Shown: positions 32,505 to 48,323 of the stretch, one piece after another | Numbering within the stretch: the stretch's first letter is position 1 | Layout: each line of letters begins with the position of its first letter | Program-made: the position numbers and the translations under genes | Notes under the pieces: model-generated | Told to the model about the DNA's origin: nothing | Databases searched by the model: none | Seen by the model: the letters and a program-made list of their open reading frames with translations, nothing else | DNA from: Chthoniobacteraceae bacterium | Lineage (GTDB): Bacteria > Verrucomicrobiota > Verrucomicrobiia > Chthoniobacterales > Chthoniobacteraceae | Length of the DNA stretch: 64,000 nucleotides | Assembly (NCBI GenBank): GCA_035997375.1 | Contig: DASYIS010000422.1 | Span: 1,380 to 65,379 of the forward strand | Reading direction: 5' to 3'

Positions 32505-33521
32505 TTACGCGGCCTCCTTTTTCTTTTTCTCCGCGGCGGGGTCGACGACGTCTTCTTGCGACGGATCGACGGCCGCTGGAGCGGCGCCGCCGGCGCCGGG
32601 CATGCCGGCGCGCCAGAGCTTGAGCGCCCATTCGGCTTTCATCGCCTTCGCGATTTGCTGGGCGTAGGCGAACTCGCGGAACCACTGCTTGACCATGTGG
32701 CGCCAGCCGCGGCCGCGGCGGGAGTTGACGGAGTCGAGCGTCTCGACGCCGCTGGCGAGCTGGGCGATCTCGGCGAGGGCGTCGCCGCGATCGATGCTCA
32801 TCTGGCCCGGGAGCTGGAACTCGACGTGGTTCATCCATTCGTCGTCGACGTCTTCGACCCAGGTCTCGACAGCTTCGGTCTCCGGATCGGCGGTGAGCGA
32901 CGCGGGGGTGGGCGGCGTGCAGACGCGCTTGAGCGGCCGGCGCAGTTTGCCGGTCTCGATGCGATGCTGCAGGTAGCGGGTGATCCAGGGGCTGCAGAGA
33001 TGGCCGATCTCCGAGTCGCCCATGATCTCGAAGAAATAGCCGGCCTTCTCGATAACGAAGCGCTGCCCGGCGCCGGACAGATCCGCGCAGGCCCAGAAGA
33101 AGTCGCTGCCGGCGCCGCCCAGGGAGGAGAGGCCGTCGCGCATGAGGACATCGCGGATAAACGGCTCGACGAGGGGCGAGGGCGACTCCGGCGTGATGAA
33201 CTTGGCGTCGCCGTTTTCGTCGGTGTAGATGATGGCGCCGCCGCCGGCGAGTTTCTCGTACTGCGCCTGCTCGTTCTTCGGCCCGTCGGGCGGCGGCGTG
33301 GCATCGCCGCCCATGCTCTGGGCGAGGCTGCGGAGCTTGGCCACGCCGCCCTGGCCGCCGGCCTTGACGAGCTTTTTGATGTGGAGACCGATCGAGGAAT
33401 TCTGCTTGGCCGTCTTGGTGACGATGCGGACCAGGTCGCGCGTGTCGCACATGGGGGCGATGGCTTGGGCGAAGTCGGAGGTGCCGCGGACCTGGTTTGC
33501 GCCGTCGGCGTGGTACCAGTG
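32505..33521 (-). CDS. Portal protein (lambda gpB family), C-terminal 338 codons; 5' part displaced by the nested element
   Basis: The frame is open from 33521: HWYHADGANQVRGTSDFAQAIAP-MCDTRDL... It is in frame with the track ORF 32505..33452 and continues the sequence that ends at 43573. Confidence 0.85.
   Translation of the reverse strand, partial: HWYHADGANQVRGTSDFAQAIAPMCDTRDLVRIVTKTAKQNSSIGLHIKKLVKAGGQGGVAKLRSLAQSMGGDATPPPDGPKNEQAQYEKLAGGGAIIYTDENGDAKFITPESPSPLVEPFIRDVLMRDGLSSLGGAGSDFFWACADLSGAGQRFVIEKAGYFFEIMGDSEIGHLCSPWITRYLQHRIETGKLRRPLKRVCTPPTPASLTADPETEAVETWVEDVDDEWMNHVEFQLPGQMSIDRGDALAEIAQLASGVETLDSVNSRRGRGWRHMVKQWFREFAYAQQIAKAMKAEWALKLWRAGMPGAGGAAPAAVDPSQEDVVDPAAEKKKKEAA
33514..33521. 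repeat. Left att core copy TACCAGTG
   Basis: Identical octamer at 43571-43578; the flanks diverge immediately on both sides. Confidence 0.8.
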
Positions 33522-33573
33522 CCGAGGAAATCCCCTAGGAAAACCAATCCGTTCCGGTTTTTGTACCGGTTTT

Positions 33574-35181
33574 TCAGTGCCCGGCTTGCGCGGTCTTCAA
33601 CTCTTTCGGGGTCGTGCCCGCATCGATGCGCACGATCTTCGCGCCATCGGTTTTCTTGGTTTCGCGAATGTCGGCAACGTCCTTGCAGCGATCCAGGTAG
33701 CGCTGAACTGCCTCGGGGTTATCGAGAGGCCAGCCGGCCGCGATCCAATGCTTCACCCGCGCCACTGAAACCTTGTAGGTCGATGCATACTCGGCGGCGG
33801 TCCTTTCGTACTCGCGGCGCTCCAGTTTGGACATGGCCTCGCGGTCGTCCAAAGGCCGCCCTTTGTGAATCCAACGAGCGATGCACTGCGGCGTCACCGC
33901 ATACTCGACGGCATACTCGGCAACGGTTTTTTGGTAGCCGCCTGCGGTGACGGGTTGGAAGCGGTTCGTGAGCGGGTCCCTGGCGCGCAAATTGGCGAAT
34001 CGCATATCTGGCGTGTTCCCAAGCGCGAGGTCCAAAACGCGCGCCGGCTCGGCGGGATGGAGGTTCCAGAAACGGGCCGCGTCAAACTCACGCACGAGCT
34101 GGCGATAATGGCCGAAGATCATGGCGGTGCCGGCGTGCCCCATCTCCAGCGCCAGCTCGGCGGCGTTCTTGAAGTGCGCGAGATGATACGAAGCGAACGA
34201 ATGGCGAAGCGCGTTTTTCGGCCACGCTCCAATCTCCGCCCGCTGACACAACTCGGCGATTCTCAGGTGAATGATTGTGGGCGCCGTCACGACCGGCCCT
34301 GATTCTTGCGCCACCGGCCGTAGCCAAGCGGCGAGGACCGGCTGAATTTTGACCAATCGACGTTGTGAGGTTTTCGACTTCGCCGCGGTCACTTCGATGA
34401 AGCCGTCTTCAAAGTCGACTTCCGACCAATCGAGCCGGCAAATCTCGGCGCACCGCAAGCCGGCAAACGCTCCGATTGCGGCATAGGCGAGCACCTGCGG
34501 GGTGGCGGCTTTGAGCAAGGCTTCGAGCTGGTCCACGGTGAGAATGCCGACGGGCGTATCCTTTTCCTTGAACAGCGCCACGCCCTGCCACGGATTCGCG
34601 GCGGCGTAACCTTGCGTGACCGACCAGGTGAAGAAAGCGGAGAGCCCCTTGGCCTGATGATTCTTCGTAATCGGCTCGCCGGGGAGCTTGTGCAGCCATC
34701 CTTCAGCGTGGCGGGCGGTGATCTCGCTTACCCGCAATCCTTCGTGTGCCTCCGCGAATTTCTTACCGAGGGTTTTCAGGTTCCTGAGATGGTCCGCCGA
34801 CACCCGCAGTCTTCGCTTCACGTCGAGATAAAGCGCGAAGGCTTCCGCGATTGAGAGGCTCGCCGCCTGTTGCTTCAGATGCGCCAATAAGAAGGCGGTG
34901 GCATCGTTGATCGTCTTTTCATAAGGGGAGAGCCTGGCGTGGCAATCCTGAGCCATGACGCGCAACCAGGATGGGAAGCTGAGAACCTCGCGGCCTTGGT
35001 TTAGCAGCTCTGTTTCGCGCTGTCGCGCCCACGTTTCGGCCTCTTTGCCCGATGCGAAGAATTTCAGTTTCTCCTTCCCGGCTTCATCCTTCCAAGCGAC
35101 CAACGCTTTTAGATGCGGGCGATTCGCTAGTTTGCACTTGCGAACCCGATACGATGACTTGCTCATGATGTTTGGAAACAA
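33574..35181 (-). CDS. int: Tyrosine recombinase/integrase (535 aa) with two extra C-terminal HTH modules
   Basis: Catalytic signature GLRCAEI (R), ALRHSFAS (HxxR), GHAG..IFGHY (H..Y). C-terminal repeats TVAEYAVEYAVTPQCIARWIHKGRPLDDREAM and TAAEYASTYKVSVARVKHWIAAGWPLDNPEAV. Confidence 0.9.
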   Translation of the reverse strand: MFPNIMSKSSYRVRKCKLANRPHLKALVAWKDEAGKEKLKFFASGKEAETWARQRETELLNQGREVLSFPSWLRVMAQDCHARLSPYEKTINDATAFLLAHLKQQAASLSIAEAFALYLDVKRRLRVSADHLRNLKTLGKKFAEAHEGLRVSEITARHAEGWLHKLPGEPITKNHQAKGLSAFFTWSVTQGYAAANPWQGVALFKEKDTPVGILTVDQLEALLKAATPQVLAYAAIGAFAGLRCAEICRLDWSEVDFEDGFIEVTAAKSKTSQRRLVKIQPVLAAWLRPVAQESGPVVTAPTIIHLRIAELCQRAEIGAWPKNALRHSFASYHLAHFKNAAELALEMGHAGTAMIFGHYRQLVREFDAARFWNLHPAEPARVLDLALGNTPDMRFANLRARDPLTNRFQPVTAGGYQKTVAEYAVEYAVTPQCIARWIHKGRPLDDREAMSKLERREYERTAAEYASTYKVSVARVKHWIAAGWPLDNPEAVQRYLDRCKDVADIRETKKTDGAKIVRIDAGTTPKELKTAQAGH

Positions 35182-35380
35182 AAAGTCCGTGTCCCGGAAG
35201 GCAGAAACCTTCTCGCGCCGAGAATCACCAAGGCGCTATCCAGGACACGGACTTGATTCTCTGTTTTCAATTGTTCGCCCCCGGCCGGTTGATTACTCCG
35301 CGAGGTTGAGACGTGCGCGGCCACCGTTTCTGCGATGCCCGAACTTTGAGAATAGACGATGCGCATCGGCGAAGGGAAGC

Positions 35381-35575
35381 CTACATTTCGCGCACCGTCA
35401 CCTTGGCGAGAGCGGCCTGCACGGCCTGCCAGCTATAGCGCGCGCATTTGCTCCCGAGTTTCACGACCGGAATCAGTCGGCGCGCCTGCATCTTTTTAAC
35501 CCCAGAGACGCTCAACTTGAGACGTTGGGCGAGTTCCTCAATGGTCAAAAATTCTTGGGTGGCGGCGGTGCTCAT
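35381..35575 (-). CDS. xis: Excisionase/MerR-type HTH DNA-binding protein (64 aa)
   Basis: FLTIEELAQRLKLSVSGVKKMQARRLIPVVKLG is the typical excisionase-family HTH. Located directly upstream of int. Confidence 0.75.
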   Translation of the reverse strand: MSTAATQEFLTIEELAQRLKLSVSGVKKMQARRLIPVVKLGSKCARYSWQAVQAALAKVTVREM

Positions 35576-35973
35576 CTAGCCGAGCTGGCGGTGTCAACGG
35601 GAGCCGGTGGGTACCGTGGGGAATTCAGAAAATCTCGCGTTGTGAGCAACGTGTGAATTGACCGGCAGTAGCCGGCGGGCGTAATGTCGCGTCGGCTGCG
35701 GCACTGTGCGTGCGGTGGCCCGCCATCTCAAACGTCGGACTTGTCACCCGTCGAAGGCGAACATGGGAGACGCGCGCCATCCGGCGCGTTGCCTCCCGGT
35801 CAGAGAAACAAAGGCCGTTCCCGATAGCCCTGGGGGTGACTCCCTGGGGTGAAAAACGCACAGTTTCGGGGGCGGCCTTTTTTGTTTCACACGATCGAGA
35901 ACCCAAAACCGCTCCCGTAAAAAACGAAAGCCCGTGTTGCAAGCACGGGCTCTCGAAAAGGGACTCAACTACG

Positions 35974-36465
35974 ATGAAGAACCGTAATCTGACGGTTGGG
36001 AATGTAATTCCCAGCCTCGGCACCGCAAGAGAAATATCGCTGCCCGCAACGCTGCCCGGAAGGCAGTCTGAGCGTCTGGAATCCGTTCCGGCCCGCGAGA
36101 AAGTCACCCTCAAAGCGCCGGGCGTTCCGCCTGGCAGCTCACCCATCCCCCCGCGCAAGGTTGTGCGGCTCGCGATGCCCGGCCGCCCTGTCGCCCCTGT
36201 CGCCATCCTCGCGGATCGCGAGGGGGTTGCCGAGGTTGGCGCGCCGGCCGCTCCCGGAACGTGCGAGCGCTGCGGGGAAACCGCTGCTGGCCTCCTCTGC
36301 CCGGCATGCACGAATGACGCGCCGCCGGCCGTGCGGCTCGCGTTTGGTCAAGCCGTTGGCATCGATGCGATGCGGGCGGCGGTCGAACGCGTGCGCGCGT
36401 ATGCGCGGCCCGCGGTCGTGCGGCTCACGATGCCCGGCCGGCCGGCGGAAGGGAGGGCAGCATGA
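35974..36465 (+). CDS. Hypothetical protein with a CxxC..CxxC zinc ribbon and a duplicated VVRL(A/T)MPGRP motif (start uncertain)
   Basis: CERCGETAAGLLCPAC. ATGA overlap with the next + strand ORF. The upstream part of track ORF 35710.. looks non-coding. Confidence 0.4.
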   Translation: MKNRNLTVGNVIPSLGTAREISLPATLPGRQSERLESVPAREKVTLKAPGVPPGSSPIPPRKVVRLAMPGRPVAPVAILADREGVAEVGAPAAPGTCERCGETAAGLLCPACTNDAPPAVRLAFGQAVGIDAMRAAVERVRAYARPAVVRLTMPGRPAEGRAA

Positions 36466-37079
36466 AAAAGAGCGAACGTTCGCCGTTCGAAGACGAGCTG
36501 CTCGATGACGAGTGGTGCGACAATCACCCTTGGCTCGAATACCGCTGCGATTCGGTCGCCGGCAGTCTCCTTTTGCTGCGTGGCCGCAAGATCGAAATCC
36601 GGTGGGTTTTCCAAATGGAAAACTTCAAGAATGAAGGCGACGATGAGCAGTACTTCAGAGGGCTCGCGTATGATCGGCTCGGCAGGTTCTACGCTGTCGT
36701 GGAGGAGGACTTGTGCACCCACCCGAAACGCCGGATTTGCGGTGTGAAGAAACTCAACGGAAAGCAGGCGCTCACGTGGTTCGCGCGCAACGCTTGCTGG
36801 GATGCGGCTTTCACGCGCGAGATGTGCCGCGCGATCGACAATCCGGGATTCGAGTTCGTGTCACTCGTGCCCGGCCGGCGCGCCAAGGGCCGCAAGGCCA
36901 CGAAGAAGGCGGAGGCGTTTCACGAGCAGCTCCACCTTGCGACGGCGCTGGTGGAGTGTGTGCGCAAGTTGGACGCGGACCCGACGCTCGCAAATCTCGG
37001 CGAGGCGTGCCGCTCGGCGAGCAAGGTCCACCAGGCGTTGCACGAACCGGCGAACTTCAAGCGCGCCGGCCAAGCGTAG
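36462..37079 (+). CDS. Hypothetical protein (205 aa), lower GC than its surroundings
   Basis: Clean ORF followed by a strong hairpin terminator. No family recognised. Confidence 0.6.
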   Translation: MKKSERSPFEDELLDDEWCDNHPWLEYRCDSVAGSLLLLRGRKIEIRWVFQMENFKNEGDDEQYFRGLAYDRLGRFYAVVEEDLCTHPKRRICGVKKLNGKQALTWFARNACWDAAFTREMCRAIDNPGFEFVSLVPGRRAKGRKATKKAEAFHEQLHLATALVECVRKLDADPTLANLGEACRSASKVHQALHEPANFKRAGQA

Positions 37080-37085
37080 GAAAAG

Positions 37086-37130
37086 AGCCGGCCGGCGCCA
37101 CCATGGCGCCGGCCGGCTGGTCCTTTCTGA
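37086..37130 (+). terminator. Rho-independent-type terminator (15-bp GC stem AGCCGGCCGGCGCCA/TGGCGCCGGCCGGCT, 3-nt loop, T-rich tail)
   Basis: Read directly from the sequence; lies 7 nt after the stop at 37079. Confidence 0.6.
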
Positions 37131-37306
37131 ATTCTGAATTTCCCCGCCTGCCGGCGTCATGCCGAGGCGAACGCCAGCGCGATGCGCCGGCTGCTCTTTG
37201 AAAACCGATAGATGCGCGCTCGAAAAACCGGGCTGCCCCTCCGACTGCGGAAAGCCGCGACGAGGGAGGCAGAGTAAATAGGGAGCGCATCGGACGCCGG
37301 GCGCAA

Positions 37307-39457
37307 CTATTGAAAGACGGCGGACCCTGTCACTTTCAGAACCGGCGGCGGATTGGTCAGGAGGTTCCGGTTTAGAGTTTCGATCGACGAAACGATCTTC
37401 TCGAGCTTTGCGGTCTGCCGCTTCGTTTCGCTCAAGAGCGGGCTGGCGCTTCCGGCCGCGAGGTTGCTCCCGCCAATCCGGCGGTCTGCATCGGTGGAAC
37501 CGCTTCGGCCTTTTTTGCCGTCGCCCTGCGCGGCTTCCGCCTTTGCGAACTCAGCGGCTTTCGCCTTAGCCGTGTCCGGATCGAGCCCGCCGAGTATCAG
37601 CTCCTTGAGCTTTGCGCGCTCTTTGCCCTCGATCTCCAAACGCTTCGCCTCGCCGGTGTCGCCCCGCACGCGTGCCCACATGATCTTGGTGTCACGCTCA
37701 ACGGATTCCTCGAGGTCTTTGCTCTTGGCGTCGCGCTCAACGCTCACATGGCCGACCGCCTTTTCCCGCGCAGCGGCCGGGCTGTCGCCGTTCTCTTCAT
37801 TGCGACGCGCGAGTAGGTGAATTTCCCTCTCGCGTTCGGCGGCGCTCTGGCCGGCGGCATCGCCCGCGGCCTTAGCGCCCAGGATGTTCATTTCGTCGGC
37901 TTGATCCGCCGCGTACTCGGCACGCTTCCGCTGCTGTTCAGTGCTTGCTTTTTCGAGTCTCAATAGCTCCTTTCGATTCTCGATCAGCTCCTGCAAGTGC
38001 GCGACCTCGGGGGCGGTAAGCCCGCCGGATTCGCCCCGCGCGCGATCCTTTGCAATAGTGGCGTCTAGCGCCTCGGTGGAATCAACGCCGGAGTCGGCGA
38101 GGATCTTCCGCTTTTTTGCCTCGGGATCTCGATCCTCGAAACTCGCTTTCTTTTTCTCGCGATCCAAGTCTTCTCCCGCTTTCTTCACTTCCTTTTGCAA
38201 GTCCAGAAGGCGCTTGGCGTCCTGCTCTGCTTCGAGGGCCGCGTCGCGTTTGGCCTTGCGGTCCGCCAGCGTTGCCGGCGAAAGACGCGCGAGGATTTTC
38301 TCGAACATTTCCAGCGACTTCGCCCATTGCCGGTACTTGTCCGCCAACTGCTCCACTTCATCCGGCTGGAAAAGTGCGTCCGCATTTTCCTCCGCATGCT
38401 TGAGCGCCTCCGCGACTTCCTCCGCTTGTTTTTCCAGCGCCGTCATGGCCTGCGCGCGCTCCTTTTCCGTGGCGACATTTTCGATCTGCTTCGCGGCGGC
38501 CCCGAGCCCGACCTGGCTCGCCTCGTCAGGTTCCGCCATCGCGGCTTCCTTGCGGCCGCTCGTTATGACGTAATCAGCGAGTCCAACGGCCGGGATGAAT
38601 CTCCGCAGCGCTGGCGGCAATTTGAACACGGCCGAAGCGAGGGAAAGCTTGGCCATGGCATCCGCCGCGATCGCGACGGATCGGCCAAAAGGCACGAGGT
38701 CCACTTTGGCGAGGTCCTGCACCATGGCCAGCGTCCCGCCCGTCACTTCGTGGCCGGTGAATCCAACGTAAAATTGATCCAGCTTCAGCGTCATGGCGCC
38801 GATCGCGTCTGACGCGGCGTCAAAAGCGGAAGCGTTTTTCTCCAGCTCGTTGCCCAAGCTCCCAACCTGTCCGCGCGCCTGCGAAAACGCTTCGGAATCG
38901 GAAAGCAGCGCGAGCATCTTCGCGCCGGATTTGCCAAACAAATCCATGGCGTAGCGCGCGCGGTCGGTCGGGTTGGCGACGCCCTTGAACGCGGCCTGCA
39001 AGGTGACGATTTGCTGAAGCGCCGTCATGGACTTCAGCGCTTCAAGTGAAACGCCGAGCTGATCGAAAACTTTCTTCGTCGGCTCCCCCTGCTCGTTGAG
39101 CCCCGTGAGGGCGCGCGAAAGAATGGCGAGCGTAGGGCCAACGCTATCCGCGCCCAAGCCGGCGTTTTTGAACGCCTGCCGCAGAACCACCAGGTCCGCG
39201 ATAGATTGGCCTGTATTGGCGGCGAGGTCCGTGAACGCGCCGCCCATCTCCAGCGCCGCCATCAAGTGTTCGGCCTGTCCCTTGATCAGCTCGAATCCCC
39301 TGGAGACCACTTCCCCGGCGACGGCGAACCCGGCAAAGCCTTGGGCGAATTTCGTGAACTTGTGCTCGGCCGTCTCGATGGAACGGCTGACGGAATTGAT
39401 GCCGGCGAGAAAATTCCCGTAGCCCAACTGCATCTCGACTTCGATTTTCTGTCCCAT
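37307..39457 (-). CDS. Second tail tape measure protein (716 aa), paralogue of 21897..24047
   Basis: Start at MGQKIEVEMQLGYGNFLAG (39457). Collinear with TMP1 (FAVAGEVV, AFKNAGLGADSVGPTLAILSRAL, DLFGKSGAKMLALL, ending SAVFQ). Identical length. Confidence 0.85.
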   Translation of the reverse strand: MGQKIEVEMQLGYGNFLAGINSVSRSIETAEHKFTKFAQGFAGFAVAGEVVSRGFELIKGQAEHLMAALEMGGAFTDLAANTGQSIADLVVLRQAFKNAGLGADSVGPTLAILSRALTGLNEQGEPTKKVFDQLGVSLEALKSMTALQQIVTLQAAFKGVANPTDRARYAMDLFGKSGAKMLALLSDSEAFSQARGQVGSLGNELEKNASAFDAASDAIGAMTLKLDQFYVGFTGHEVTGGTLAMVQDLAKVDLVPFGRSVAIAADAMAKLSLASAVFKLPPALRRFIPAVGLADYVITSGRKEAAMAEPDEASQVGLGAAAKQIENVATEKERAQAMTALEKQAEEVAEALKHAEENADALFQPDEVEQLADKYRQWAKSLEMFEKILARLSPATLADRKAKRDAALEAEQDAKRLLDLQKEVKKAGEDLDREKKKASFEDRDPEAKKRKILADSGVDSTEALDATIAKDRARGESGGLTAPEVAHLQELIENRKELLRLEKASTEQQRKRAEYAADQADEMNILGAKAAGDAAGQSAAEREREIHLLARRNEENGDSPAAAREKAVGHVSVERDAKSKDLEESVERDTKIMWARVRGDTGEAKRLEIEGKERAKLKELILGGLDPDTAKAKAAEFAKAEAAQGDGKKGRSGSTDADRRIGGSNLAAGSASPLLSETKRQTAKLEKIVSSIETLNRNLLTNPPPVLKVTGSAVFQ

Positions 39458-39530
39458 AATTTTTGGTGTTGGGCTACGGCCCGCCCTGTGGGGGCTGTCA
39501 ACTCCGGCGGCGGAGCCCCGCCACGGAACG

Positions 39531-39564
39531 AAAAACCCCGTCCCCTCACACCGAGGGGACGGGG
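39531..39564 (-). terminator. Hairpin terminator upstream of the element's tape measure gene (12-bp stem CCCCGTCCCCTC/GAGGGGACGGGG followed by TTTTT on the minus strand)
   Basis: Read directly from the sequence; located in the 156-nt gap between 39614 and 39457. Confidence 0.55.
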
Positions 39565-39613
39565 CTGGACTCGAAGGCCGGCGGCGCAACTCGCCGACAC
39601 CTTCGGCGGCGTG

Positions 39614-40357
39614 TCAATGAATCAGGCCGTCGTCGTCGTCAGTCCACGCGCGGAGAGCTTTGCGAAACTCCGGCCCCTTGTCGGGGAACTTGGCGAGCAA
39701 CTCCAGCGCCTTGGCCTGGCGGCGCTGGTCGTAGGTTGTGCGGGGCGCGGCCGGCGCGGCGATCGGGGCGATCGGGGCGAGCGCCATCGGCTTTTCCAAC
39801 AAGGCGTCTCCGAAGTTTAACCCGGCGATTATCAGCGGCGGCTGGACGTTGGCGGCGATCTGGCGGCCGGCAAGGTCCGCATCCGCGAGCCATTCCTCCA
39901 GAGACAAAAGTGAACCGCTCGGCTCGTGGACAATCCCGAGCCGCGCGGCCGTCTGCAGCTCCTGCGCGCGCAGGGTCTCGGCTTCCTTTCCGATGAGCTC
40001 GAGGATCTTCGCGCGGATCTCAGCGTGGATTGGTTTCGCTTCCCTGTCGATGGCCTGCAACTGCTCTTTGCAGAGCGCGCGCACGGCTTGGCCGCGCTCG
40101 TGGTGGAGTTGGTCGGGAATCACGGCGCCCTCCACGCGGGCCGCATTTTCCGGCGACGGGTCTTTGCGGAATTCCTCGCGGGCCGCGTCGAGTTCCACAT
40201 CCTTTTTTCGTGTGGCGGCCATCTGCCTTTGGAAGCCGTTGAAGCGTTCGGCGAGCTGGCGGAGCGCGGCGATCTGCGGGGGGCTGGCGACGCGGGCGAG
40301 GCGGCCGGCGATGAGGTGACGGAGGCTGGCTTTGGGGTGGGAGGCGCGGAAGTTCAT
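39614..40357 (-). CDS. Hypothetical protein (247 aa), coiled-coil-like
   Basis: Operon orientation inside the element. No family recognised. Confidence 0.65.
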   Translation of the reverse strand: MNFRASHPKASLRHLIAGRLARVASPPQIAALRQLAERFNGFQRQMAATRKKDVELDAAREEFRKDPSPENAARVEGAVIPDQLHHERGQAVRALCKEQLQAIDREAKPIHAEIRAKILELIGKEAETLRAQELQTAARLGIVHEPSGSLLSLEEWLADADLAGRQIAANVQPPLIIAGLNFGDALLEKPMALAPIAPIAAPAAPRTTYDQRRQAKALELLAKFPDKGPEFRKALRAWTDDDDGLIH

Positions 40358-40381
40358 TGGTGGGGGAATTCGGGAATTGGG

Positions 40382-40690
40382 CTACTCGCCCTTGGCGCGA
40401 TCGTAGGCGACGGCGGCTTCATCCAGACGGTTGCCGAGGCGGGCGTGCATTTCGTTTTTCTCGACCGGGCCAGCGGCCAAGTAGGATTCCATGACCGCGA
40501 CCAGGTCGGCCGGCGCGGTGGGTTCGGCTTGGTCGGCGGTGCCCTTTTCGCAATCGTAGGCGGCAGCGGCGGCATCGAGGCGCGGGCCTTCTCGATCGCG
40601 CATTTCGTTTTTTTCGACCGGGCCAGCGGCCAAGTAGGATTCCATGAGCGCCACAAGGGTGGCGTGCTCTGCGGTGGGGGCTTGTGTCAT
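40382..40690 (-). CDS. Small protein (102 aa) made of two tandem copies of the scaffold C-terminal module
   Basis: LVALMESYLAAGPVEKNEMRDREGPRLDAAAAAYD and LVAVMESYLAAGPVEKNEMHARLGNRLDEAAVAYD. ATG at 40690 with AAGGAGG upstream. Confidence 0.7.
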   Translation of the reverse strand: MTQAPTAEHATLVALMESYLAAGPVEKNEMRDREGPRLDAAAAAYDCEKGTADQAEPTAPADLVAVMESYLAAGPVEKNEMHARLGNRLDEAAVAYDRAKGE

Positions 40691-40713
40691 TGCCTCCTTG
40701 CCGGGGGTGTCAA

Positions 40714-41664
40714 TCACCAGCCCTCCAAGGCGCGATCGTAAGCGACGGCGGCTTCATCCAGTCGCTTGCCGTGGCGCTCCATCAGTGCATTTTTTTCGAG
40801 CGGGCCAGCCTTCAAGTAAGACTCCATGAGGGGGACCAGGTCATCTCCCCCCGCGCGGGAGAGGGTTTCGGGGGAGTCTTTCTCGGCGGTAATGCCATTG
40901 CGCGCCAAGCGCTCCAATTTGCCCTCCGCACGGCCTTTGGCGGCCGTGAGTGCGGTAATCGTTCCGTGAGCGGTGGCGAGGGCCGCGCGCGCGTCGGCGA
41001 GCTGGTTTTGAAAGTCCGTCGCTCTCGCCTGCCAATGCTGCCAAGAGGTCGTGGCGATCGTCTCGGGAGGTTTGGAGCGCGGAGCGTTTTGAAAGCTGGA
41101 AAGATCGAAGCTGTTCTTTGTCGTCACGCGATCGGTGATTTCATCGATGAACCCTTGGGCTTTCGCTTCCTCCGCGGTGAACCAAGTTTCGGCGTCCATC
41201 ATGGCGGCGATTTCCGCGGCCGGAATCCCGGTCTTGGCGACGTAGGCATTGACGAGCTGCGCCTTGATTTTGTCCATGACCTGCGCGGCCGTGCGCATTT
41301 GCTCCGATCCGCCCTGCGCGGCGCCGCTCGGATTGTGGATCATGAAAAGGCCGTTTTCCGCCATGCGGACGGGCTTTCCCACCATGGCGAGATAGCTCGC
41401 CATGCTCGCGGCCATGCCGTCGATTTGGACCGTCACGCCTGGCTTGTGGCGCAGAAGGGCGTTGTAGATCGCGTTCCCTTGAATGACCGACCCGCCCGGC
41501 GAATTGATGCGGAGATTGATCCGCTTTTCGCCATAGGTCTTGAGCGAGGCGAGCATCGCGATCGCGGTCTGAGCGAACGAACCGATTTCGGCGTAGATGA
41601 ACAGGTCGACGACGCCGGCGTTGTTTTCGATCGAGTACCAGGATGAGGGCGAGGGCGCGGGCAT
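40714..41664 (-). CDS. Element-encoded S49/ClpP-like head protease-scaffold (316 aa), paralogue of 30916..32046
   Basis: LRINSPGGSVIQGNAI..MAENGLFMIHNP..GKLERLARNGITAEKD..LVPLMESYLKAGPLEKNALMERHGKRLDEAAVAYD. The track start at 41685 is the TTG of a TTGACA motif. Confidence 0.85.
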   Translation of the reverse strand: MPAPSPSSWYSIENNAGVVDLFIYAEIGSFAQTAIAMLASLKTYGEKRINLRINSPGGSVIQGNAIYNALLRHKPGVTVQIDGMAASMASYLAMVGKPVRMAENGLFMIHNPSGAAQGGSEQMRTAAQVMDKIKAQLVNAYVAKTGIPAAEIAAMMDAETWFTAEEAKAQGFIDEITDRVTTKNSFDLSSFQNAPRSKPPETIATTSWQHWQARATDFQNQLADARAALATAHGTITALTAAKGRAEGKLERLARNGITAEKDSPETLSRAGGDDLVPLMESYLKAGPLEKNALMERHGKRLDEAAVAYDRALEGW

Positions 41665-41681
41665 GCGCATCTCCGCGCCTG

Positions 41682-42569
41682 TCAACCGCCGGTGCGGACA
41701 GGTATTATTGGCTGCTCGGGGTGCAGGGCGGCGTAAGCTTGGTCGATATAGGCTTTTCGCTCATCTTCGGGCAGGCGAAAGAAGCCGTCCTCATCCTCCT
41801 TCCCCGCGAGTTTCCACGCCGCGCTCTTCGTTCGTTCCACGTCGGCCCAGATGGCTTCGTCGTCGTGGTCGATCAGCGGGGGCCGTGCCGCTGGCTCTTC
41901 TTCGCCATAGATAGGCGGCACCCATCCCGGAATCATGGCCTGCGCCGTCGTTCGGCACTCTTTGTCGAAACCCCTGATAACTGCATCCGTTTCCGCCTCG
42001 AGGATTTCCTCGAGCTGGTCTTCATTGGACGCGCCGCTGAGCTTTCCGGGGAGACGGCCCACCATCGCTTTGACGCGAGCACGCAGGAAGCCGAACACGC
42101 GCGCGGAGAAGGTCTCAACTGCTACCACCTCGACGGTGCGGTCGTTGGCCTTGCGAATGGCCGGCGCGGCGATCTCCTCTTTGCGGAGCTGCTCTTTGAT
42201 GGCGAGCCATTCCTTGGAGAGGAGAAGACGCGTTTGAGCCAAGCTGCCATCGGTCTTTGAGGCTTCCCAATCCCGCCGCGCTTCATCCTCGGCGAGGCGC
42301 AAGGCGGCGAGCGGATCGGACGGGCGCGGAGCGGGCGCGGCCGTGCCGGCGGCCGGCGCGGGCGCGGGCGCGGCTGCTGCCGTCGGCGGCTGCTTGCGGC
42401 GGTTCTGCGCGTCCACGATCGCGGCCGTGCCGTTTGTGATTCGGCCATTGGCGGCGCGCCATTCTTCGGCCGCTTGAAGGGACGTGAGCGGCATGCCGCG
42501 TTTGACCAGGCGACCGACATTCTGTTGGGAGCAGCCCCATTCACGGGCCAGAGCATTTTGCGAAATCAT
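41682..42569 (-). CDS. Terminase small-subunit-like DNA-binding protein (295 aa)
   Basis: N-terminal HTH LAREWGCSQQNVGRLVKRGMPL, an Ala/Pro linker and a helical C-terminal part. Same architecture as the helper TerS and preceded by the shared cos-like sequence. Confidence 0.6.
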   Translation of the reverse strand: MISQNALAREWGCSQQNVGRLVKRGMPLTSLQAAEEWRAANGRITNGTAAIVDAQNRRKQPPTAAAAPAPAPAAGTAAPAPRPSDPLAALRLAEDEARRDWEASKTDGSLAQTRLLLSKEWLAIKEQLRKEEIAAPAIRKANDRTVEVVAVETFSARVFGFLRARVKAMVGRLPGKLSGASNEDQLEEILEAETDAVIRGFDKECRTTAQAMIPGWVPPIYGEEEPAARPPLIDHDDEAIWADVERTKSAAWKLAGKEDEDGFFRLPEDERKAYIDQAYAALHPEQPIIPVRTGG

Positions 42570-42634
42570 TGCGCCCCAGGCGCAGAGTCAACGGGGGGTA
42601 CAATGGGTACAACCTACAACCTAAGCTTTTTTGG

Positions 42635-42765
42635 GAATTCCGCGTGCGACAAGGCCGGGGGAGCTTGCAACCGCTCGCGGGGGGGGTGCCCCTAGGAGAC
42701 TCCTTAGCCGGGGGGGTGCCTAGGTGCGGCCATGCCGCGCGCAGGTGCCCCGTGGCGGCCTGGCT
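42635..42765. repeat. Copy A of a roughly 130-bp sequence shared with 48364-48500 (candidate cos/pac or late control region), flanked by GGTACAAC/GTTGTACC repeats
   Basis: GCGTGCGACAAGGCCGGGGG.GCTTGCAACCGCTCGC..GGGGGGTGCCC..AGGAGACTCCTTAGCCGGGGGG aligns between the two loci with few mismatches. Confidence 0.7.
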
Positions 42766-42886
42766 GGCCACAAGGCCGGGCTGTAATCTCTCTCCCTACA
42801 ACGCTTCGCGAGCATTGTACCGTTGTGGAATGCGCGCCAGCGTTGTACCCCCATGCGCGCCCGTTCTCGCCTTCTGGCTTGGCGTG

Positions 42887-43147
42887 CTACATCAGCTCGC
42901 GGAAGGCGAGGGCGAGCCGGTCGAGCTCGCCGGCTCTATCGATCAGAGCCGGCGTGAGCTCGTCCACTCCCAAGACAATCTGGCGTGTGATGTCCACGGC
43001 CTCACGGATCAAGCCGGCCTCGGTTGAAATGGTTTCGCGGTCGTCGCCTCTGCTTCGCTTGAACCGCAGGAAGCCGAGCGCCAGAGCGCCAGAGAACACG
43101 CAACGGCGTGAGGTTTCCAACACCACCTCTTCTTCTTCCGTGCTCAT
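42887..43147 (-). CDS. Small hypothetical protein (86 aa), paralogue of the next gene
   Basis: Start at MSTEEEEVV (43147). C-terminal VDELTPALIDRAGELDRLALAFRE resembles VKDLTPAMLHRAGELQTLAEEFRE. Confidence 0.55.
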   Translation of the reverse strand: MSTEEEEVVLETSRRCVFSGALALGFLRFKRSRGDDRETISTEAGLIREAVDITRQIVLGVDELTPALIDRAGELDRLALAFRELM

Positions 43148-43374
43148 CGGCCAACCTCCCGGAATTCTTCGGCGAGAGTTTGCAGCTCGCCGGCGCGGTG
43201 GAGCATGGCCGGCGTGAGGTCTTTGACCGCGATGATTTCCGAGCGCTCGGATTCGATCCAGGCGGCGGCGATCAGCGCGCGCGAGGCGGTGAGCTCGCGG
43301 AGTCTTTGAAGGCAGGCGCGGCCAGCGGCGAGCGTGTGCGCGCTGGAATTGAGGAGGCGGGTTTCGAGGTCCAT
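43144..43374 (-). CDS. Small hypothetical protein (76 aa), first gene inside the right end of the element
   Basis: AGGAGG plus TTGACA upstream; ATGA overlap with its paralogue. Confidence 0.55.
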   Translation of the reverse strand: MDLETRLLNSSAHTLAAGRACLQRLRELTASRALIAAAWIESERSEIIAVKDLTPAMLHRAGELQTLAEEFREVGR

Positions 43375-43417
43375 TTGCCTCCTGCCCTACTGTCAACGCT
43401 CCAACAGCCAAAACCGC

Positions 43418-43443
43418 AAAAACCGGGACCGTTCCGGTTTTTT
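43418..43443. terminator. A/T-flanked hairpin AAAAACCGG-N7-CCGGTTTTTT (bidirectional terminator-like) near the right end of the element; contains CCGTTCCGGTTTTT, also present at 33549-33562
   Basis: Read directly from the sequence. Confidence 0.5.
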
Positions 43444-43569
43444 GGTGTTCGCGTGGGTACTTCAGGGTCCGCGACGGGACTACCCGCCTCTTCCCGCCAA
43501 TCCGCTGGAAGCCTGATGAACACAGGCTTCCAGAGTAAATGGCCCCTCTTCCCGGTTCCCTACTTGCTA

Positions 43570-44211
43570 TTACCAGTGGATTACCTGGGCACGCGGGATG
43601 CGCGTGAAGGTGTTGTCGAGGCCGCGGACGTGGATCGCGACCATGCAGTGGTTGTTGTCGAGCTCGATACCGTCGACGATGAACGGGTTGCTCTCGGCGG
43701 ACGGCGGCGACATGACCTCCGAGGCGTCGAAAAGCTGGATGCACGGGGCGTCTTCCCAGCGCGGATTCGGTACGATGGCGGCGAGGAATTCGCCCTGCTT
43801 CACGCGGGCCTGGGGCGCGAAGGTCTGGATCTCGTAGCCGTTGCGCCGGCCGGCGAGGTCGCAACGATCGGGCGCGAGCATGTAGCACTCAACGTCGGCC
43901 TCGGCCTCGGCGTTCCAGGCTTCATCGTCGGTATTGAGCGCGAGATAGATCCCCTTCCCCACGACGTAACGGGCGATGCCGCGGACGGCTTCCTTGACGA
44001 TGCCGAAGTTCTGGAAGAGCCACTCGACGCGGAAGTTGATCTGCTGCCGCGTCCAGGACGGGAGATACTGCCGGGTGTCCGCGTTTGGAAAATAGAAGAT
44101 CGACTGGCGATCGGGCGTGTTGCTGACGGCCTCGGCGAAGGGGCCCCACGCGTTGACGAAGCCGAGCATGGCGCCGGCGGCGGCGCTTTTGAGCGTCTGA
44201 AGGAACTTCAT
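43570..44211 (-). CDS. Portal protein (lambda gpB family), N-terminal 213 codons, truncated by the nested element
   Basis: Follows the gpW-like gene as in lambda. Ends ..RIPRAQVIHW-TAA exactly at the core repeat. Normal portals are about 500-550 aa. Confidence 0.85.
   Translation of the reverse strand: MKFLQTLKSAAAGAMLGFVNAWGPFAEAVSNTPDRQSIFYFPNADTRQYLPSWTRQQINFRVEWLFQNFGIVKEAVRGIARYVVGKGIYLALNTDDEAWNAEAEADVECYMLAPDRCDLAGRRNGYEIQTFAPQARVKQGEFLAAIVPNPRWEDAPCIQLFDASEVMSPPSAESNPFIVDGIELDNNHCMVAIHVRGLDNTFTRIPRAQVIHW
43571..43578. repeat. Right att core copy TACCAGTG
   Basis: Identical to 33514-33521. It supplies the codons His-Trp and the TAA stop that truncates the portal N-fragment. Confidence 0.8.
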
Positions 44212-45294: not shown

Positions 45295-47496
45295 GGGCGC
45301 CGCAGTGGTGAGCTTCCGCACTCTGTCGCGGAGCGTCTCGAGTTTGCCCTCCGCCTCCGCCTCCATTTGCGCGAGCCGCTTGACGCGCTCAGCGTCGAGG
45401 ATCGGCTCGACGTCGAGGCCCTGCACTTCCTGCTCTTTCCAGCAGTCGCCCTGGTGATTCTTTTTGCGGCGTGCGACCCACATGAAGCCGCCGCCTTTCT
45501 TGGGGACGGTGTGTTCGTCGCAGAGCTGCTCGATGAACTCGGGATCGATATTGGACGGCAGCCAGCGCATCAGCTTCCGGTCTTTGATGATGCGGCGGTA
45601 AACCGTCTGGCAGAAATAATCGCTCCAAAACCACGTGAGGGTGAGCCGCTTGTCGTCGACCTCGGAAAGATAGACCACGTTGCCGCGGCAGTGGCCGCGG
45701 CTGCCGCCTTTGGCCGGCGCGAAGATGTCGCGATTATCGCGGCAGAACTGGTAGACGTCCGCCTCGCTCTGCGCCTGGTCGCCGGAGTCGACCAGGCCGG
45801 TATAGACGCGCATCGGCCGCGCGACACCGGTGGCGGGATCGTGCCAGAGATACTCGTTGAAGCGCGCCGGCGCGGCCGCAGCGGTGCGGCCGCCGGCGTG
45901 CGCGGAGAGCGGGAGGATGCCGGCGAGCTCCTGAATCTGAGTCCAGGCGACGGCGCTCCCATAATCGACCAGGACGCCGACGGTGGGCCAGCCGGGGAGA
46001 TCCCACGCGATGCCCCAGGCGAAGATGTTCCACCAGAACGGGGCCTCGCCGCCCTGCTTCTGGACGTCGACGGCCATGGTGAGCACGAATGGTTCGAAGC
46101 CGCCGGCCTTTGGCCCACTCGGGATGGTGCCGAGCAGGTACCGCGGCGAGGCATCGCGCAGGCGCTCGACGTCGGAGGCGTCGACTTCGGTGGCGACGCT
46201 CTTGAACTCGAGGCCGAAGTAATTGTTGTACAGATCGTGCATCGCGCCCGGGTCGCCCATGGCGAGCAGGTAGCGCTTGCTGATGCTGCCCCAGCGCTCG
46301 AAAGGGCTGTAGGCGGCCCACCAATGCGCGGAGACGTGAGAGCGGGAGGCCTTCGGGTTGGTGGCCATCCAGCGGAAGCGGCGGAGCATCCAATTCAACG
46401 AGGTCTGTTCGATGCGGCAGCCGTTGACGCACTGGTACCAGGTCTCTGTCTCCGCGAGATCGGAGTCCCATCCGACCTCGACGGTCTCGGGCTTGCCGTC
46501 CTCGCCGACGCGGGTCTCGGTGATGCGGGCGCCGCCGAATTGGAAAGAGCCGGTCTTGGCCAGGCGGAACTCGCCCGCCGGCAACGGCGTGAGATCTTCG
46601 GCGAACGGGACCTTCTCTTCACCGGGAAAGAAAGTGAGCGGCTGCCAGCCGGCGAGGGTGGGATCGTGCCCGGCCGGCGACCAGCCAGGCGTCGGGACCT
46701 CAGGTGGCGTGAAGGTGTGGCGCGGCCCGCGGGGTGTGGCGCGATGTTTCGCGGTGCAATGAGGGCACGGGAGGTAACACTGATGGCGGCTGCCCTTTTG
46801 ATGACGAACCGTGACGGCGCCGAATTCATCGGTCGGCGTGCTATTCTCGAAAACCTTGCTGGTCCGCGGGAAGAGTTTGACGCGGGCCTCGGCGAGCTGG
46901 TGCGCCGGCGCCTCGCCTTTCGTGGTGTGATGGATCTTGCCGGACTCGTTGATGAAGACCCACTCGGCGTTGAAGCCGGCGAGCTCGTTCGGCGATCCGG
47001 CGCCGGCCATCTTGAGGAACGCGCCGCCTTTGAAGAAACACTGCGCGGCCGTCCAATGCTCCTTGGTGCGGATCGCCTGCTCGGCGACGGGAAGGCAGGC
47101 GAGCAGGAAAGGCTCGAGCTCGCGGCGGAAGAGCTGCCGTGCGCTGGCGCGCGAGGGATCGACCCAGAGCACCGGGCCCGGCGCCTCGGCGATCTTGTAG
47201 AGCATCAACGCGAAGCAGAGGAGCGTGCCACCGGTGCGCGCGGACTTTTTCAGGGTGAAGGTCCGGACGTGCTTTTGCATCGCGAGATCCATGAGGCCTT
47301 CCATGGGCGGGACGCGCGAGGTGTCGAGCGGGCCGGGCTCGGTCGCGGCGGCGACGGCCGGGATGACGACGTGGCGATTGACCCAGACGCACGGCCGCAA
47401 TTTGGCGGGGATGCGGAAGGCGATGCCGGCGGCCGTGGCCATGATGCGCATCGTCTTGCGGACGGTGCGCTGCGCGTTGACGAGCTGCTGGATCAT
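45289..47496 (-). CDS. terL: Terminase large subunit, GpA family (735 aa)
   Basis: KKSARTGGT (Walker A-like), CYLPCPHC zinc motif, size and position upstream of W and portal as in lambda gpA. Confidence 0.9.
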   Translation of the reverse strand: MIQQLVNAQRTVRKTMRIMATAAGIAFRIPAKLRPCVWVNRHVVIPAVAAATEPGPLDTSRVPPMEGLMDLAMQKHVRTFTLKKSARTGGTLLCFALMLYKIAEAPGPVLWVDPSRASARQLFRRELEPFLLACLPVAEQAIRTKEHWTAAQCFFKGGAFLKMAGAGSPNELAGFNAEWVFINESGKIHHTTKGEAPAHQLAEARVKLFPRTSKVFENSTPTDEFGAVTVRHQKGSRHQCYLPCPHCTAKHRATPRGPRHTFTPPEVPTPGWSPAGHDPTLAGWQPLTFFPGEEKVPFAEDLTPLPAGEFRLAKTGSFQFGGARITETRVGEDGKPETVEVGWDSDLAETETWYQCVNGCRIEQTSLNWMLRRFRWMATNPKASRSHVSAHWWAAYSPFERWGSISKRYLLAMGDPGAMHDLYNNYFGLEFKSVATEVDASDVERLRDASPRYLLGTIPSGPKAGGFEPFVLTMAVDVQKQGGEAPFWWNIFAWGIAWDLPGWPTVGVLVDYGSAVAWTQIQELAGILPLSAHAGGRTAAAAPARFNEYLWHDPATGVARPMRVYTGLVDSGDQAQSEADVYQFCRDNRDIFAPAKGGSRGHCRGNVVYLSEVDDKRLTLTWFWSDYFCQTVYRRIIKDRKLMRWLPSNIDPEFIEQLCDEHTVPKKGGGFMWVARRKKNHQGDCWKEQEVQGLDVEPILDAERVKRLAQMEAEAEGKLETLRDRVRKLTTAAPS

Positions 47497-48323
47497 GGCT
47501 CGTCGTCGAGGGGCGGCGGCGGCGGCGTGGGCGAGTCGTCAGCCGGATCAGCCGGGCGCTGGGGGAGCTCTTCGCCCTCGAGGGCGGCGAAGATGAGATC
47601 GACGAGGGTGCGCAGCAGGACCTCGGCTTCGCGCTCGAGGATTTGCTCGATCTCGTCGCGATCGATGATGCCCTCGAGCTTGGCGGCCGCGCGCGGGGGG
47701 AGATTGTTGATCGCGGCGCGCAGGGCGTTGAAGGTCTGGGCGATATCGGCTTCCGCCTCAGAGCGATCGATGGTGAGGCGGTTTTGCTTCCGGATGTCCG
47801 GGGCGTCTTTCTCGAGCTTGCGCAGGGCCTCGACCACGCCCATCCATTCCTTGAAGCGGTTTTGAAGGTGCAGGGTGCTGCTGCGCGATCGGATGGCAGC
47901 GAAGTATGCGGCCGCGCGCTCGCGTTCGGCCTTCTGCAGGCGTTCAATGGCGGCGAGTACTCCGACGCCTTCGAAGAAGGTTTCATCGAGCGCGATGAGG
48001 TGCGGCTCGACGGGATCGCCGTCCCAGGTGCGCAAGCCGGCGGCGGAGGTCCTGGCGTCGTCGAAGGCGGGGCGCTCGGTGCGAGGGGGATCTGCAGGCG
48101 TGCCGGCGATGTTGCGCGTGGCTTCTTCAACCTGGGCGGAATCGAGATCCTCGGCGGGCTTGCGACCGCGCGGGGAAAAATGCTCCCCCATGGCATCGGG
48201 ATCATCGAGCGGCTTCCCCGCGGCCGCCCACCGTTTGATCGTGCGGAGGCTTTTCCCGTAGATCTTCGCGTAGTGCGCGAGCCCGTGGTGGTATTTTTTC
48301 GGCGGCTTTGGATCTCGGGGCAC
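47493..48323 (-). CDS. terS: Terminase small subunit candidate (276 aa)
   Basis: ATGA overlap with terL. N-terminal HTH LAHYAKIYGKSLRTIKRWAAAGKPLDDPDAM. Acidic C-terminus. By my reading of the printed sequence the GTG start falls at 48324 rather than the ORF-track 48323, and the two readings do not reconcile; the track coordinates are used here. Confidence 0.65.
   Translation of the reverse strand: MPRDPKPPKKYHHGLAHYAKIYGKSLRTIKRWAAAGKPLDDPDAMGEHFSPRGRKPAEDLDSAQVEEATRNIAGTPADPPRTERPAFDDARTSAAGLRTWDGDPVEPHLIALDETFFEGVGVLAAIERLQKAERERAAAYFAAIRSRSSTLHLQNRFKEWMGVVEALRKLEKDAPDIRKQNRLTIDRSEAEADIAQTFNALRAAINNLPPRAAAKLEGIIDRDEIEQILEREAEVLLRTLVDLIFAALEGEELPQRPADPADDSPTPPPPPLDDEP

Follow-up and report, generated by a model that had tools for sequence, protein, structure and literature searches.

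Redirection of capsid size by phage satellites is, to our knowledge, understood for only a few systems, namely Sid, CpmAB, Ccm, TcaP, and Rcm, all of them from Proteobacteria or Firmicutes. CpmB of SaPI1, a satellite of helper phage 80alpha, forms dimers that carry the C-terminal motif of the helper scaffold, compete with that scaffold for a shared capsid-protein site, and span neighboring capsomers (PMC5644958). Rcm of SaPIpT1028 has a topology that mirrors the helper scaffold and has been proposed as a competitor for the capsid protein (PMC12409344). Here, we describe a candidate for a comparable role in a stretch of 64,000 nucleotides from a Chthoniobacteraceae bacterium (contig DASYIS010000422.1; hereafter, the window). 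The candidate is the product of a 102-aa open reading frame (ORF; 40382..40690) that consists of two copies of the terminal module of a scaffold and lies in a ~10-kb satellite-like element inserted in the portal gene of a prophage, its putative helper.

The 102-aa protein and CpmB are alike in being satellite-encoded, small, and all-helical (as predicted here by AlphaFold2, AF2), and in presenting the C-terminal docking element of the helper scaffold with two heads per functional unit; as with SaPI1, the encoding satellite, here known from its sequence, has no capsid protein of its own. CpmB has 72 aa and a single head, and its bivalency comes from an N-terminal dimerization domain, whereas the heads of the 102-aa protein are joined in a covalent tandem and no such domain is present. 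There was no sequence similarity between the two proteins (no Pfam or PHROG match), and the docking element is a helix-and-hook with an RIIK motif in CpmB but a helical hairpin of ~40 aa in the 102-aa protein. Host phylum and helper type also differ, and the role as a mimic is in the present case read from sequence. Rcm is likewise a satellite protein resembling the helper scaffold, although it is larger and multi-helical, shares scattered motifs, and is not a tandem repeat of the scaffold terminal domain. Sid (P4), TcaP (PLE), and Ccm (SaPIbov5) are satellite-encoded determinants of capsid size, which is the role proposed for the 102-aa protein, but Sid and TcaP are external scaffolds and Ccm is a capsid-protein homologue; none mimics the helper scaffold terminus, and no similarity to the 102-aa protein was found. 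The ClpP-type proteases of the element and the helper, with their C-terminal helical scaffold part, resemble lambda C/Nu3 and the ClpP-related head maturation protease. Unlike fusions of this type, the 102-aa protein has neither protease nor coiled coil and carries the terminal domain twice.

An earlier reading of the window from its letters alone (the original prediction) had cited the CpmB precedent, correctly (PMC5644958), and had called the tandem protein a different solution from those already described. The difference stands for the architecture, a covalent tandem with no dimerization domain, and falls for the principle, since mimicry of a scaffold C-terminus was already known, with Rcm as a second precedent (PMC12409344). 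What appears to be new is the covalent tandem of the terminal domain alone, for which the satellite's own protease-scaffold was the source of the duplicated sequence, the association of this tandem with a satellite-encoded protease-scaffold and tape-measure protein (TMP), and the phylum. The copying of the helper scaffold's docking end by a satellite (CpmB, Rcm) and the embedded configuration were known before.

That configuration is typified by HE-PICIs, helper-embedded satellites of Enterobacteriaceae with sites that include Phage_portal_2 genes (PMC10111431; Tommasini, Mageeney and Williams 2023). They encode Int, an AlpA-type Xis, and a "late zone" of helper-captured genes (PMC10111431), in the zone order Int-AlpA-Bro-replication-late. 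The window element resembles them in being embedded in a helper gene (portal) and in encoding Int, an AlpA-type Xis, and helper-derived late genes; it differs in its Verrucomicrobial host, in the position of int at its downstream end, and in that no primase or replication gene was detected. Its late zone comprises the terminase small subunit (TerS), the protease-scaffold, the tandem C-terminal domain (CTD), and the TMP, and TMPs have been reported to be rare in satellites (PMC12822802). Capsid-forming PICIs encode their own major capsid protein (MCP), portal, and head-tail connectors, none of which was found in the window element.

Tandem scaffold modules in the 102-aa protein

A repeat search returned a single family of three direct, head-to-tail copies of a 144-nt unit (40388-40531, 40541-40684, and 40723-40866), with spacings of 153 and 182 nt and with 76% and 70% nucleotide identity to the reference copy. 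Copies 1 and 2 fill nearly all of the 102-aa ORF, and copy 3, read on the minus strand, corresponds to the last ~45 residues of a protease-scaffold ORF. The repeated module, designated block B, and the genes that contain it or are presumed to be its target are as follows.

40382..40690, minus strand: 102-aa ORF with two tandem block B (scaffold CTD) modules, recognized from the ORF, its translation, and the block-B profile
40553..40657, minus strand: core of module 1 (LVALMESYLAAGPVEKNEMRDREGPRLDAAAAAYD)
40400..40504, minus strand: core of module 2 (LVAVMESYLAAGPVEKNEMHARLGNRLDEAAVAYD)
40714..41685, minus strand: element ClpP-type prohead protease with a short scaffold (Pfam CLP_protease 1.3e-37; PHROG head maturation protease 1e-71)
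30916..32046, minus strand: ClpP protease-scaffold of the helper prophage, 376 aa (NCBIfam head maturation protease, ClpP-related)
29950..30858, minus strand: helper MCP, 302 aa, the protein that the module presumably targets (PHROG major head protein 4e-19)

In BLASTP comparisons, the two modules of the 102-aa protein (MTQAPTAEHATLVALMESYLAAGPVEKNEMRDREGPRLDAAAAAYDCEKGTADQAEPTAPADLVAVMESYLAAGPVEKNEMHARLGNRLDEAAVAYDRAKGE) matched the element protease-scaffold at 1e-15 and 5e-13 and the helper protease-scaffold at 3e-11 per module, with 52-58% identity. Each half of the protein scored ~47-49 bits on a profile built from 24 family members outside the window, and thus from no window sequence, and its modules scored 66.9 and 68.2 bits on the family block-B profile. 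A six-frame scan counted exactly four modules in the window, the remaining two being module 3 of the element protease-scaffold (40735-40839) and the C-terminal module of the helper protease-scaffold (30940-31044). The same kind of scan found no module in 80 viral loci with related ClpP proteases, which had been collected with the element protease and matched it in the protease domain only. The repeat is real, specific, and far above chance; repeats, BLASTP, and the independent profile all bore out the predicted tandem arrangement in 40382..40690 and the presence of the module at the ends of both protease-scaffolds. The predicted module length of ~35-40 aa describes the repeated block B, whereas the conserved scaffold CTD is larger and comprises blocks A and B.

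The ORF as predicted contains both modules, and only its start may need adjustment. ATG 40690 has AAGGAGG just 2 nt upstream, and an alternative GTG start at 40717, which would give 111 aa, is preceded at 4 nt by GGAGG and overlaps the protease stop codon as GTGA; both modules are present in either version. The protein contains block B only, without block A and without a coiled coil, and is made up of two modules and a linker, with no N-terminal dimerization domain. Its AF2 model (mean pLDDT 84.7) shows two helical hairpins, H7-21/H24-49 and H61-72/H75-101, with pLDDT of 92-95 in the hairpin blocks and low confidence in linker residues 50-60. The protein matched no Pfam, PHROG, or NCBIfam family, and neither a Foldseek search of the model against the PDB nor a profile search of PDB sequences gave a meaningful match. 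A lambda gpD-like decoration protein, suggested by the position of the gene, was rejected because scaffold CTD accounts for the entire sequence. A frameshift extension of the protease-scaffold was likewise rejected, as the 37-nt overlap contains no slippery sequence and the start signals are independent.

To identify the module, 1.84 billion representative proteins were searched exhaustively with HMMER (E <= 0.001), the query being a profile of the four window copies. The module occurred in 27 representative proteins, including 3 from the window, and most of the others were coiled-coil scaffolds of 144-193 aa with one shared architecture: an N-terminal "MTLKEQLD", a long coiled coil, block A ("AAEQLAKNGIxPxAKDxP"), and, at the extreme C-terminus, block B (consensus DPxALWExYxxADxxxQAxMRAxHGxKLDAAAxAxD). 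Both window protease-scaffolds share the corresponding CTD, in which block A (GKLERLARNGITAEKDxPE) is followed by block B. At the phage locus L083, the gene order is TerL (terminase large subunit), a W-like gene, a lambda-family portal, a 61-aa gene, an S49 protease, a 182-aa module protein, and a 303-aa MCP; L099, L100, and L103 have the same arrangement, with the module gene between a prohead protease and a ~303-aa MCP (the L100 contig ends within the MCP, at ~210 aa). The MCPs of L083, L099, and L100 showed 44-51% identity to the helper MCP, the 303-aa MCP of L103 lying outside this comparison. In every full-length phage context examined, the module gene was directly upstream of the ~303-aa MCP, and the module occupied the extreme C-terminus of scaffolds that are free or fused (ClpP, S49-adjacent, and, in P0025, an unassigned N-terminal domain). 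On the basis of this scaffold architecture and the gene position directly upstream of the MCP, the module is identified as the C-terminal domain of scaffolding proteins in one lambda-like phage family, which agrees with the original assignment as a scaffold C-terminal module.

The 102-aa protein fits the block-B profile but not the canonical scaffold layout, that is, a coiled coil, block A, a single block B, and the MCP as the next gene, and is classified as a derivative of the scaffold-CTD family rather than a canonical scaffold. When the block-B profile was applied to all 27 family proteins, every phage scaffold had exactly one module. More than one occurred only in two proteins, both element-encoded: P0001, with two full-strength modules, and P0027 of the related element L086 (L086:8001-8999), with one strong module and, ahead of block A, a weak internal copy (residues 227-257, 13.5 bits). 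We read the second copy in P0027 as a separate instance in which a satellite has multiplied the module.

The scaffold C-terminus of P22, a helix-turn-helix, is its coat-binding end. The same end binds coat in 80alpha (PMC5644958). By analogy with these characterized systems, the module probably binds the MCP. Alternative partners are conceivable, namely portal, protease, or a further scaffold molecule, and the tandem protein would then regulate portal or protease incorporation or scaffold oligomerization. The CTD owes its assigned role to analogy alone, its conserved unit is made up of blocks A and B jointly, and there is a physical link between the element and the portal gene, all of which leave room for such a partner. 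Nevertheless, the module is located at the extreme C-terminus of scaffolds and always co-occurs with the same ~303-aa MCP family, and an NCBIfam model of fusions of ClpP protease, scaffold, and MCP places the scaffold end against the MCP N-terminus. Together with the coat-binding precedents, these points make a partner other than the MCP distinctly unlikely.

The three element copies differ from each other with dS of 0.4-0.8, which indicates that the duplication is not recent. Across the 35 codons that could be compared, dN/dS among these copies was 0.28-0.47 and the reading frame was kept, and the element copies appear to be under purifying selection. The family-invariant residues Y, G, A, and A are all retained in modules 1 and 2, together with most of the near-invariant ones. 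The GC content at third codon positions (GC3) of the ORF is 0.75, typical of the element, and its codon-position GC pattern is that of real element genes. In amino acid identity, module 1 is nearest to module 2 (80%), followed by module 3 (69%) and the helper module (60%). The 102-aa sequence was found on two contigs, 99.985% identical to each other, and a word-indexed homologue search with the protein returned only the self-match.

We consider it highly probable that the ORF encodes a real protein. The opposing explanation invokes slippage or unequal recombination at the 3' end of the protease-scaffold gene, with the duplicate persisting as an ORF that is unexpressed or functionless. Such a neutral by-product would fit a singleton gene that lacks orthologues, is missing from the related elements L086 and L087, and is positioned as a tandem repeat immediately downstream of its parent sequence. 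It is at odds with copies that have diverged to this extent yet have kept their frame, their family-invariant residues, and low dN/dS, with the score that each copy still reaches on the independent profile, with the two plausible ribosome-binding and start arrangements (including the GTGA stop-start overlap), and with the codon-position GC pattern, and we regard it as improbable.

The portal-embedded element and its relatives

The element that carries the 102-aa gene, together with the portal fragments on both sides of it, has the following features.

33522..43578, minus strand: whole ~10-kb integrative element, delimited by an 8-bp direct repeat, the rejoined portal, and lower GC3
43571-43578 and 33514-33521: 8-bp direct repeat (CACTGGTA) flanking the element
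43570..44211, minus strand: N-terminal fragment of the helper portal, 213 aa (PF05136, profile positions 22-197)
32505..33521, minus strand: C-terminal fragment of the helper portal, recognized by rejoining with the N-terminal fragment
33574..35166, minus strand: tyrosine integrase, 530 aa (Pfam Phage_integrase; PHROG integrase 2.5e-31)
35381..35575, minus strand: excisionase or AlpA-like helix-turn-helix (HTH) protein, 64 aa (HTH_17; PHROG excisionase)
37307..39457, minus strand: tape-measure paralogue, 716 aa from ATG 39457 (PHROG tape measure)
39614..40357, minus strand: 247-aa long-helix protein, homologous to L086_224 and L087_184
41682..42569, minus strand: TerS paralogue, 295 aa (weak PHROG terminase small subunit match)

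The insertion is exact and lies inside a lambda-family portal gene at approximately Pfam position 197, and the key genes are all on the same strand. The portal N-terminal fragment stops after 213 residues (…AQVIHW), and the sequence resumes at 33521 (YHADGANQVRG…). The rejoined portal has 549 aa and an unbroken PF05136 match over the junction (6.9e-35 vs 1.4e-19 for the fragment alone) and aligns over the junction without gaps with the intact portal of L083; the junction predicted after excision is ...ATCCACTGGTACCACGCC.... GC3 is lower in the element (0.73-0.83) than in the surrounding prophage (0.87-0.92), which starts at about 11 kb, preceded by hisB and other host genes, and continues beyond the window. 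The int and xis genes lie at the downstream end of the element, and the Xis is 54% identical to the Xis that follows the mini-scaffold P0013 in the related element L089.

Two further genes are paralogues of helper genes. The TMP has 53% identity over its full length to the helper TMP (21897..24047, minus strand). Only the C-terminal part of the element TerS matches the helper TerS (47493..48323, minus strand; 39%, 4e-14), and the N-terminal HTH differs, a pattern expected of a satellite TerS that would redirect helper TerL to satellite DNA. Scans of the element ORFs with Pfam, PHROG, and NCBIfam recognized no MCP, portal, TerL, or head-tail connector. Because of the exact portal insertion, the 8-bp repeat, Int and Xis, the paralogues of helper genes, and the lack of MCP, portal, and TerL, the element is classified as a discrete, integrative, helper-embedded satellite. 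The original prediction had likewise spoken of an element, and the paralogues of helper morphogenesis genes within an integrative, satellite-like unit support this view. A decayed prophage remnant was rejected because at least three elements, diverged from each other, carry this compact gene set.

We identified three to five related elements, each with a short module-bearing scaffold, in L086, L087/L088, L089, and possibly L082.

L086 (Chthoniobacterales metagenome-assembled genome): int, HTH_17 protein, DnaB-like replicase, 141-aa gene, ClpP protease-scaffold P0027, 224-aa gene, and 998-aa TMP
L087/L088: int, rep-like genes, 287-aa ClpP protease with a degenerate terminal module, 184-aa and 788-aa genes, and 125-aa mini-scaffold P0024
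L089: 162-aa mini-scaffold P0013, then Xis
L082 (possible member): TerS-N-like ORF and 95-aa mini-scaffold P0021

The 247-, 224-, and 184-aa proteins are homologous across the window element, L086, and L087, as are the protease domains, and a profile search with the family of the 247-aa protein found four proteins only. The TMP-like proteins of the window and L087 share 38% identity over their N-terminal part (5.6e-40), whereas the 998-aa protein of L086 gave no significant pairwise TMP match and has only a TMP_3 domain call in common. A DnaB-like gene in L086 and the rep-like genes of L087 set these elements apart from the window element, in which no primase or replication gene was recognized. 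Short scaffolds with a phage-type CTD are read as a conserved feature of the element family.

Proposed action on capsid assembly

The element and helper protease-scaffolds are 45% identical, with gaps totaling ~60 residues in the coiled-coil spacer. In the helper, the coiled coil at residues ~215-300 consists of about five repeats of ~14 aa (LTAETAKVxDLTxK...), and the element scaffold is without roughly four of them, so that its spacer is ~55 residues shorter; if this segment is an alpha-helix, the spacer would be ~8 nm shorter than that of the helper. The element protein has the catalytic Ser and His motifs (GMAASMA and MIHNP), and its probable start is ATG 41664.

We propose, with slightly less than even confidence in the chain as a whole, that the satellite uses the 102-aa protein as a functional, bivalent mimic of the helper scaffold CTD and thereby shifts capsid size. 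The proposal builds on the observed repeat, its homology to the scaffold CTD, the anatomy of the satellite, and its paralogy with the helper; to these it adds that the protein would be expressed, would bind the capsid protein, and would affect capsid size. Upon induction, the satellite would excise by means of Int and Xis, which would restore the portal gene. As the element has no capsid, portal, or TerL genes, it must assemble with helper proteins, and these would be the helper MCP, portal, TerL, and tails, with packaging specificity coming from the satellite TerS through its different N-terminal domain. The satellite would also supply its own protease-scaffold with the shortened helical spacer. 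A duplication at the 3' end of the protease-scaffold gene would have given rise to the tandem-module gene. Each module, a helical hairpin, would dock on the inner face of the capsid protein, as judged from P22 and 80alpha, and the two docking heads, joined by a linker of ~12 residues and lacking an oligomerization domain, would occupy scaffold sites on two neighboring capsid subunits. In this way, the 102-aa protein would compete with and displace the long helper scaffold and would hold adjacent subunits or capsomers a short, fixed distance apart, constraining local geometry much as the CpmB dimer does. The tandem protein and the shortened element scaffold together would favor small capsids for the 10-kb genome and penalize helper packaging. 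A cos-type (gpA) terminase and a genome of 10 kb, compared with at least 43 kb for the helper, would make a small capsid advantageous.

The same homology and satellite context would also suit a pure decoy or inhibitor that blocks the scaffold site of the capsid or the helper scaffold itself and acts in interference only, with size being set by the shortened element protease-scaffold, the 247-aa protein, or both. Without block A and a coiled coil, the 102-aa protein cannot nucleate a scaffold core, and the element offers other candidate size determinants. Furthermore, identity to the helper module is higher for modules 1 and 2 (60% and 57%) than for module 3, the element scaffold's own (49%). 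A monovalent module would, however, be enough for competition, and bivalency suggests bridging or avidity. We consider action as a decoy alone to be unlikely, though less so than a neutral by-product or another binding partner.

Several observations weigh against the proposed bivalent size-shifting mimic. The conserved 247-aa helical protein could be an alternative size determinant or a TMP chaperone. The related elements have a single mini-scaffold and the tandem protein is peculiar to the window member, so that the tandem form is not a conserved requirement; no orthologue of the 102-aa gene was found among 5.8 billion clustered proteins, which contained one sequence only. The dN/dS estimates are based on 35 codons. 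The near-invariant Trp of the family is replaced by Met in all three element copies (and by Ile in the L087 mini-scaffold), a change that could alter or weaken binding. Modules 1 and 2 are about as close to the module of phage L083 (60-63%; module 3, 51%) as to that of the helper, and the resident prophage may not be the helper to which the element modules are tuned. Finally, profile searches of the PDB and tblastn of cultured phages found the module in no solved structure and no cultured phage.

If the two-headed mimic acts as proposed, this "staple" would be a third and architecturally distinct solution for internal scaffold mimicry, after CpmB and Rcm. If it binds two capsid subunits, the geometry of CpmB, with two docking heads at a short distance, would be reachable by simple tandem duplication, and the 102-aa protein would be a minimal, easily engineered probe of how the spacing of scaffold contacts relates to capsid curvature. 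The element itself extends helper-embedded satellites to another phylum and adds a satellite with protease-scaffold and tape-measure paralogues. It is conceivable, though we hold this more doubtfully than the proposal for the single protein, that the related loci represent an undescribed Verrucomicrobial satellite family that remodels helper capsids with its own protease-scaffold and short or multivalent scaffold CTDs, the staple being the factor for size or interference in the window member.

Further searches and neighboring genes

The module corresponds to no Pfam, PHROG, or NCBIfam family, and the C-terminal 75 aa of the helper scaffold, which cover blocks A and B, had no tblastn match among cultured phages. 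The nearest isolate to the helper MCP is Verrucomicrobia phage P8625, with 34% identity; this and the Chthoniobacterales origin of L086 point to a probable Verrucomicrobial host. A metagenome scan with the module alignment gave 600 pattern matches and 0 confirmed, a result attributed to an overly short query and overly degenerate patterns. A scan of genome contigs with the TMP alignment found 8 loci that share the TMP N-domain only, with no module and no other element genes, and these are interpreted as ordinary phage TMPs. An integrase scan of viral contigs returned one phage fragment, apparently unrelated.

The AF2 model of the 247-aa protein consists of long helices at low confidence (pLDDT 61) and had no informative fold match in the PDB. 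In both L086 and L087, the large TMP-like gene is preceded by a homologue of this protein. Between the 247-aa and TMP genes of the window lies a strong 15-bp GC-rich hairpin with a T-run (39534-39566, minus strand), whose position upstream of the TMP gene suggests that ATG 39457 is the start. A perfect bidirectional hairpin (37086-37118) separates the TMP-like gene from a convergent 205-aa gene (36462..37079, plus strand), which, like the 163-aa gene at 35974..36465 (plus strand), matched no Pfam, PHROGs, or NCBIfam family.

The integrase has a C-terminal extension (~435-491) with two HTH-like repeats that resemble the N-terminal DNA-binding region of TerS, with 39% identity to the helper TerS over 41 aa (residues 451-491) and 47% to the L099 TerS over 57 aa. 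Through this extension, integration or excision may be coupled to the packaging site. The small ORFs 43144..43374 (76 aa) and 42887..43147 (86 aa), both on the minus strand at the element's upstream end, are adjacent paralogues ending in ...DLTPAxxxRAGELxxLAxxFRE...; they matched no family and may be regulators. In the host flank, a low-GC (0.49) Eco57I/N6_Mtase-type restriction-modification gene (1904..4588, minus strand) lies beside a gene for a WGR/REase_MTES_1575 protein (163..1191), and these genes probably constitute a separately acquired defense island.

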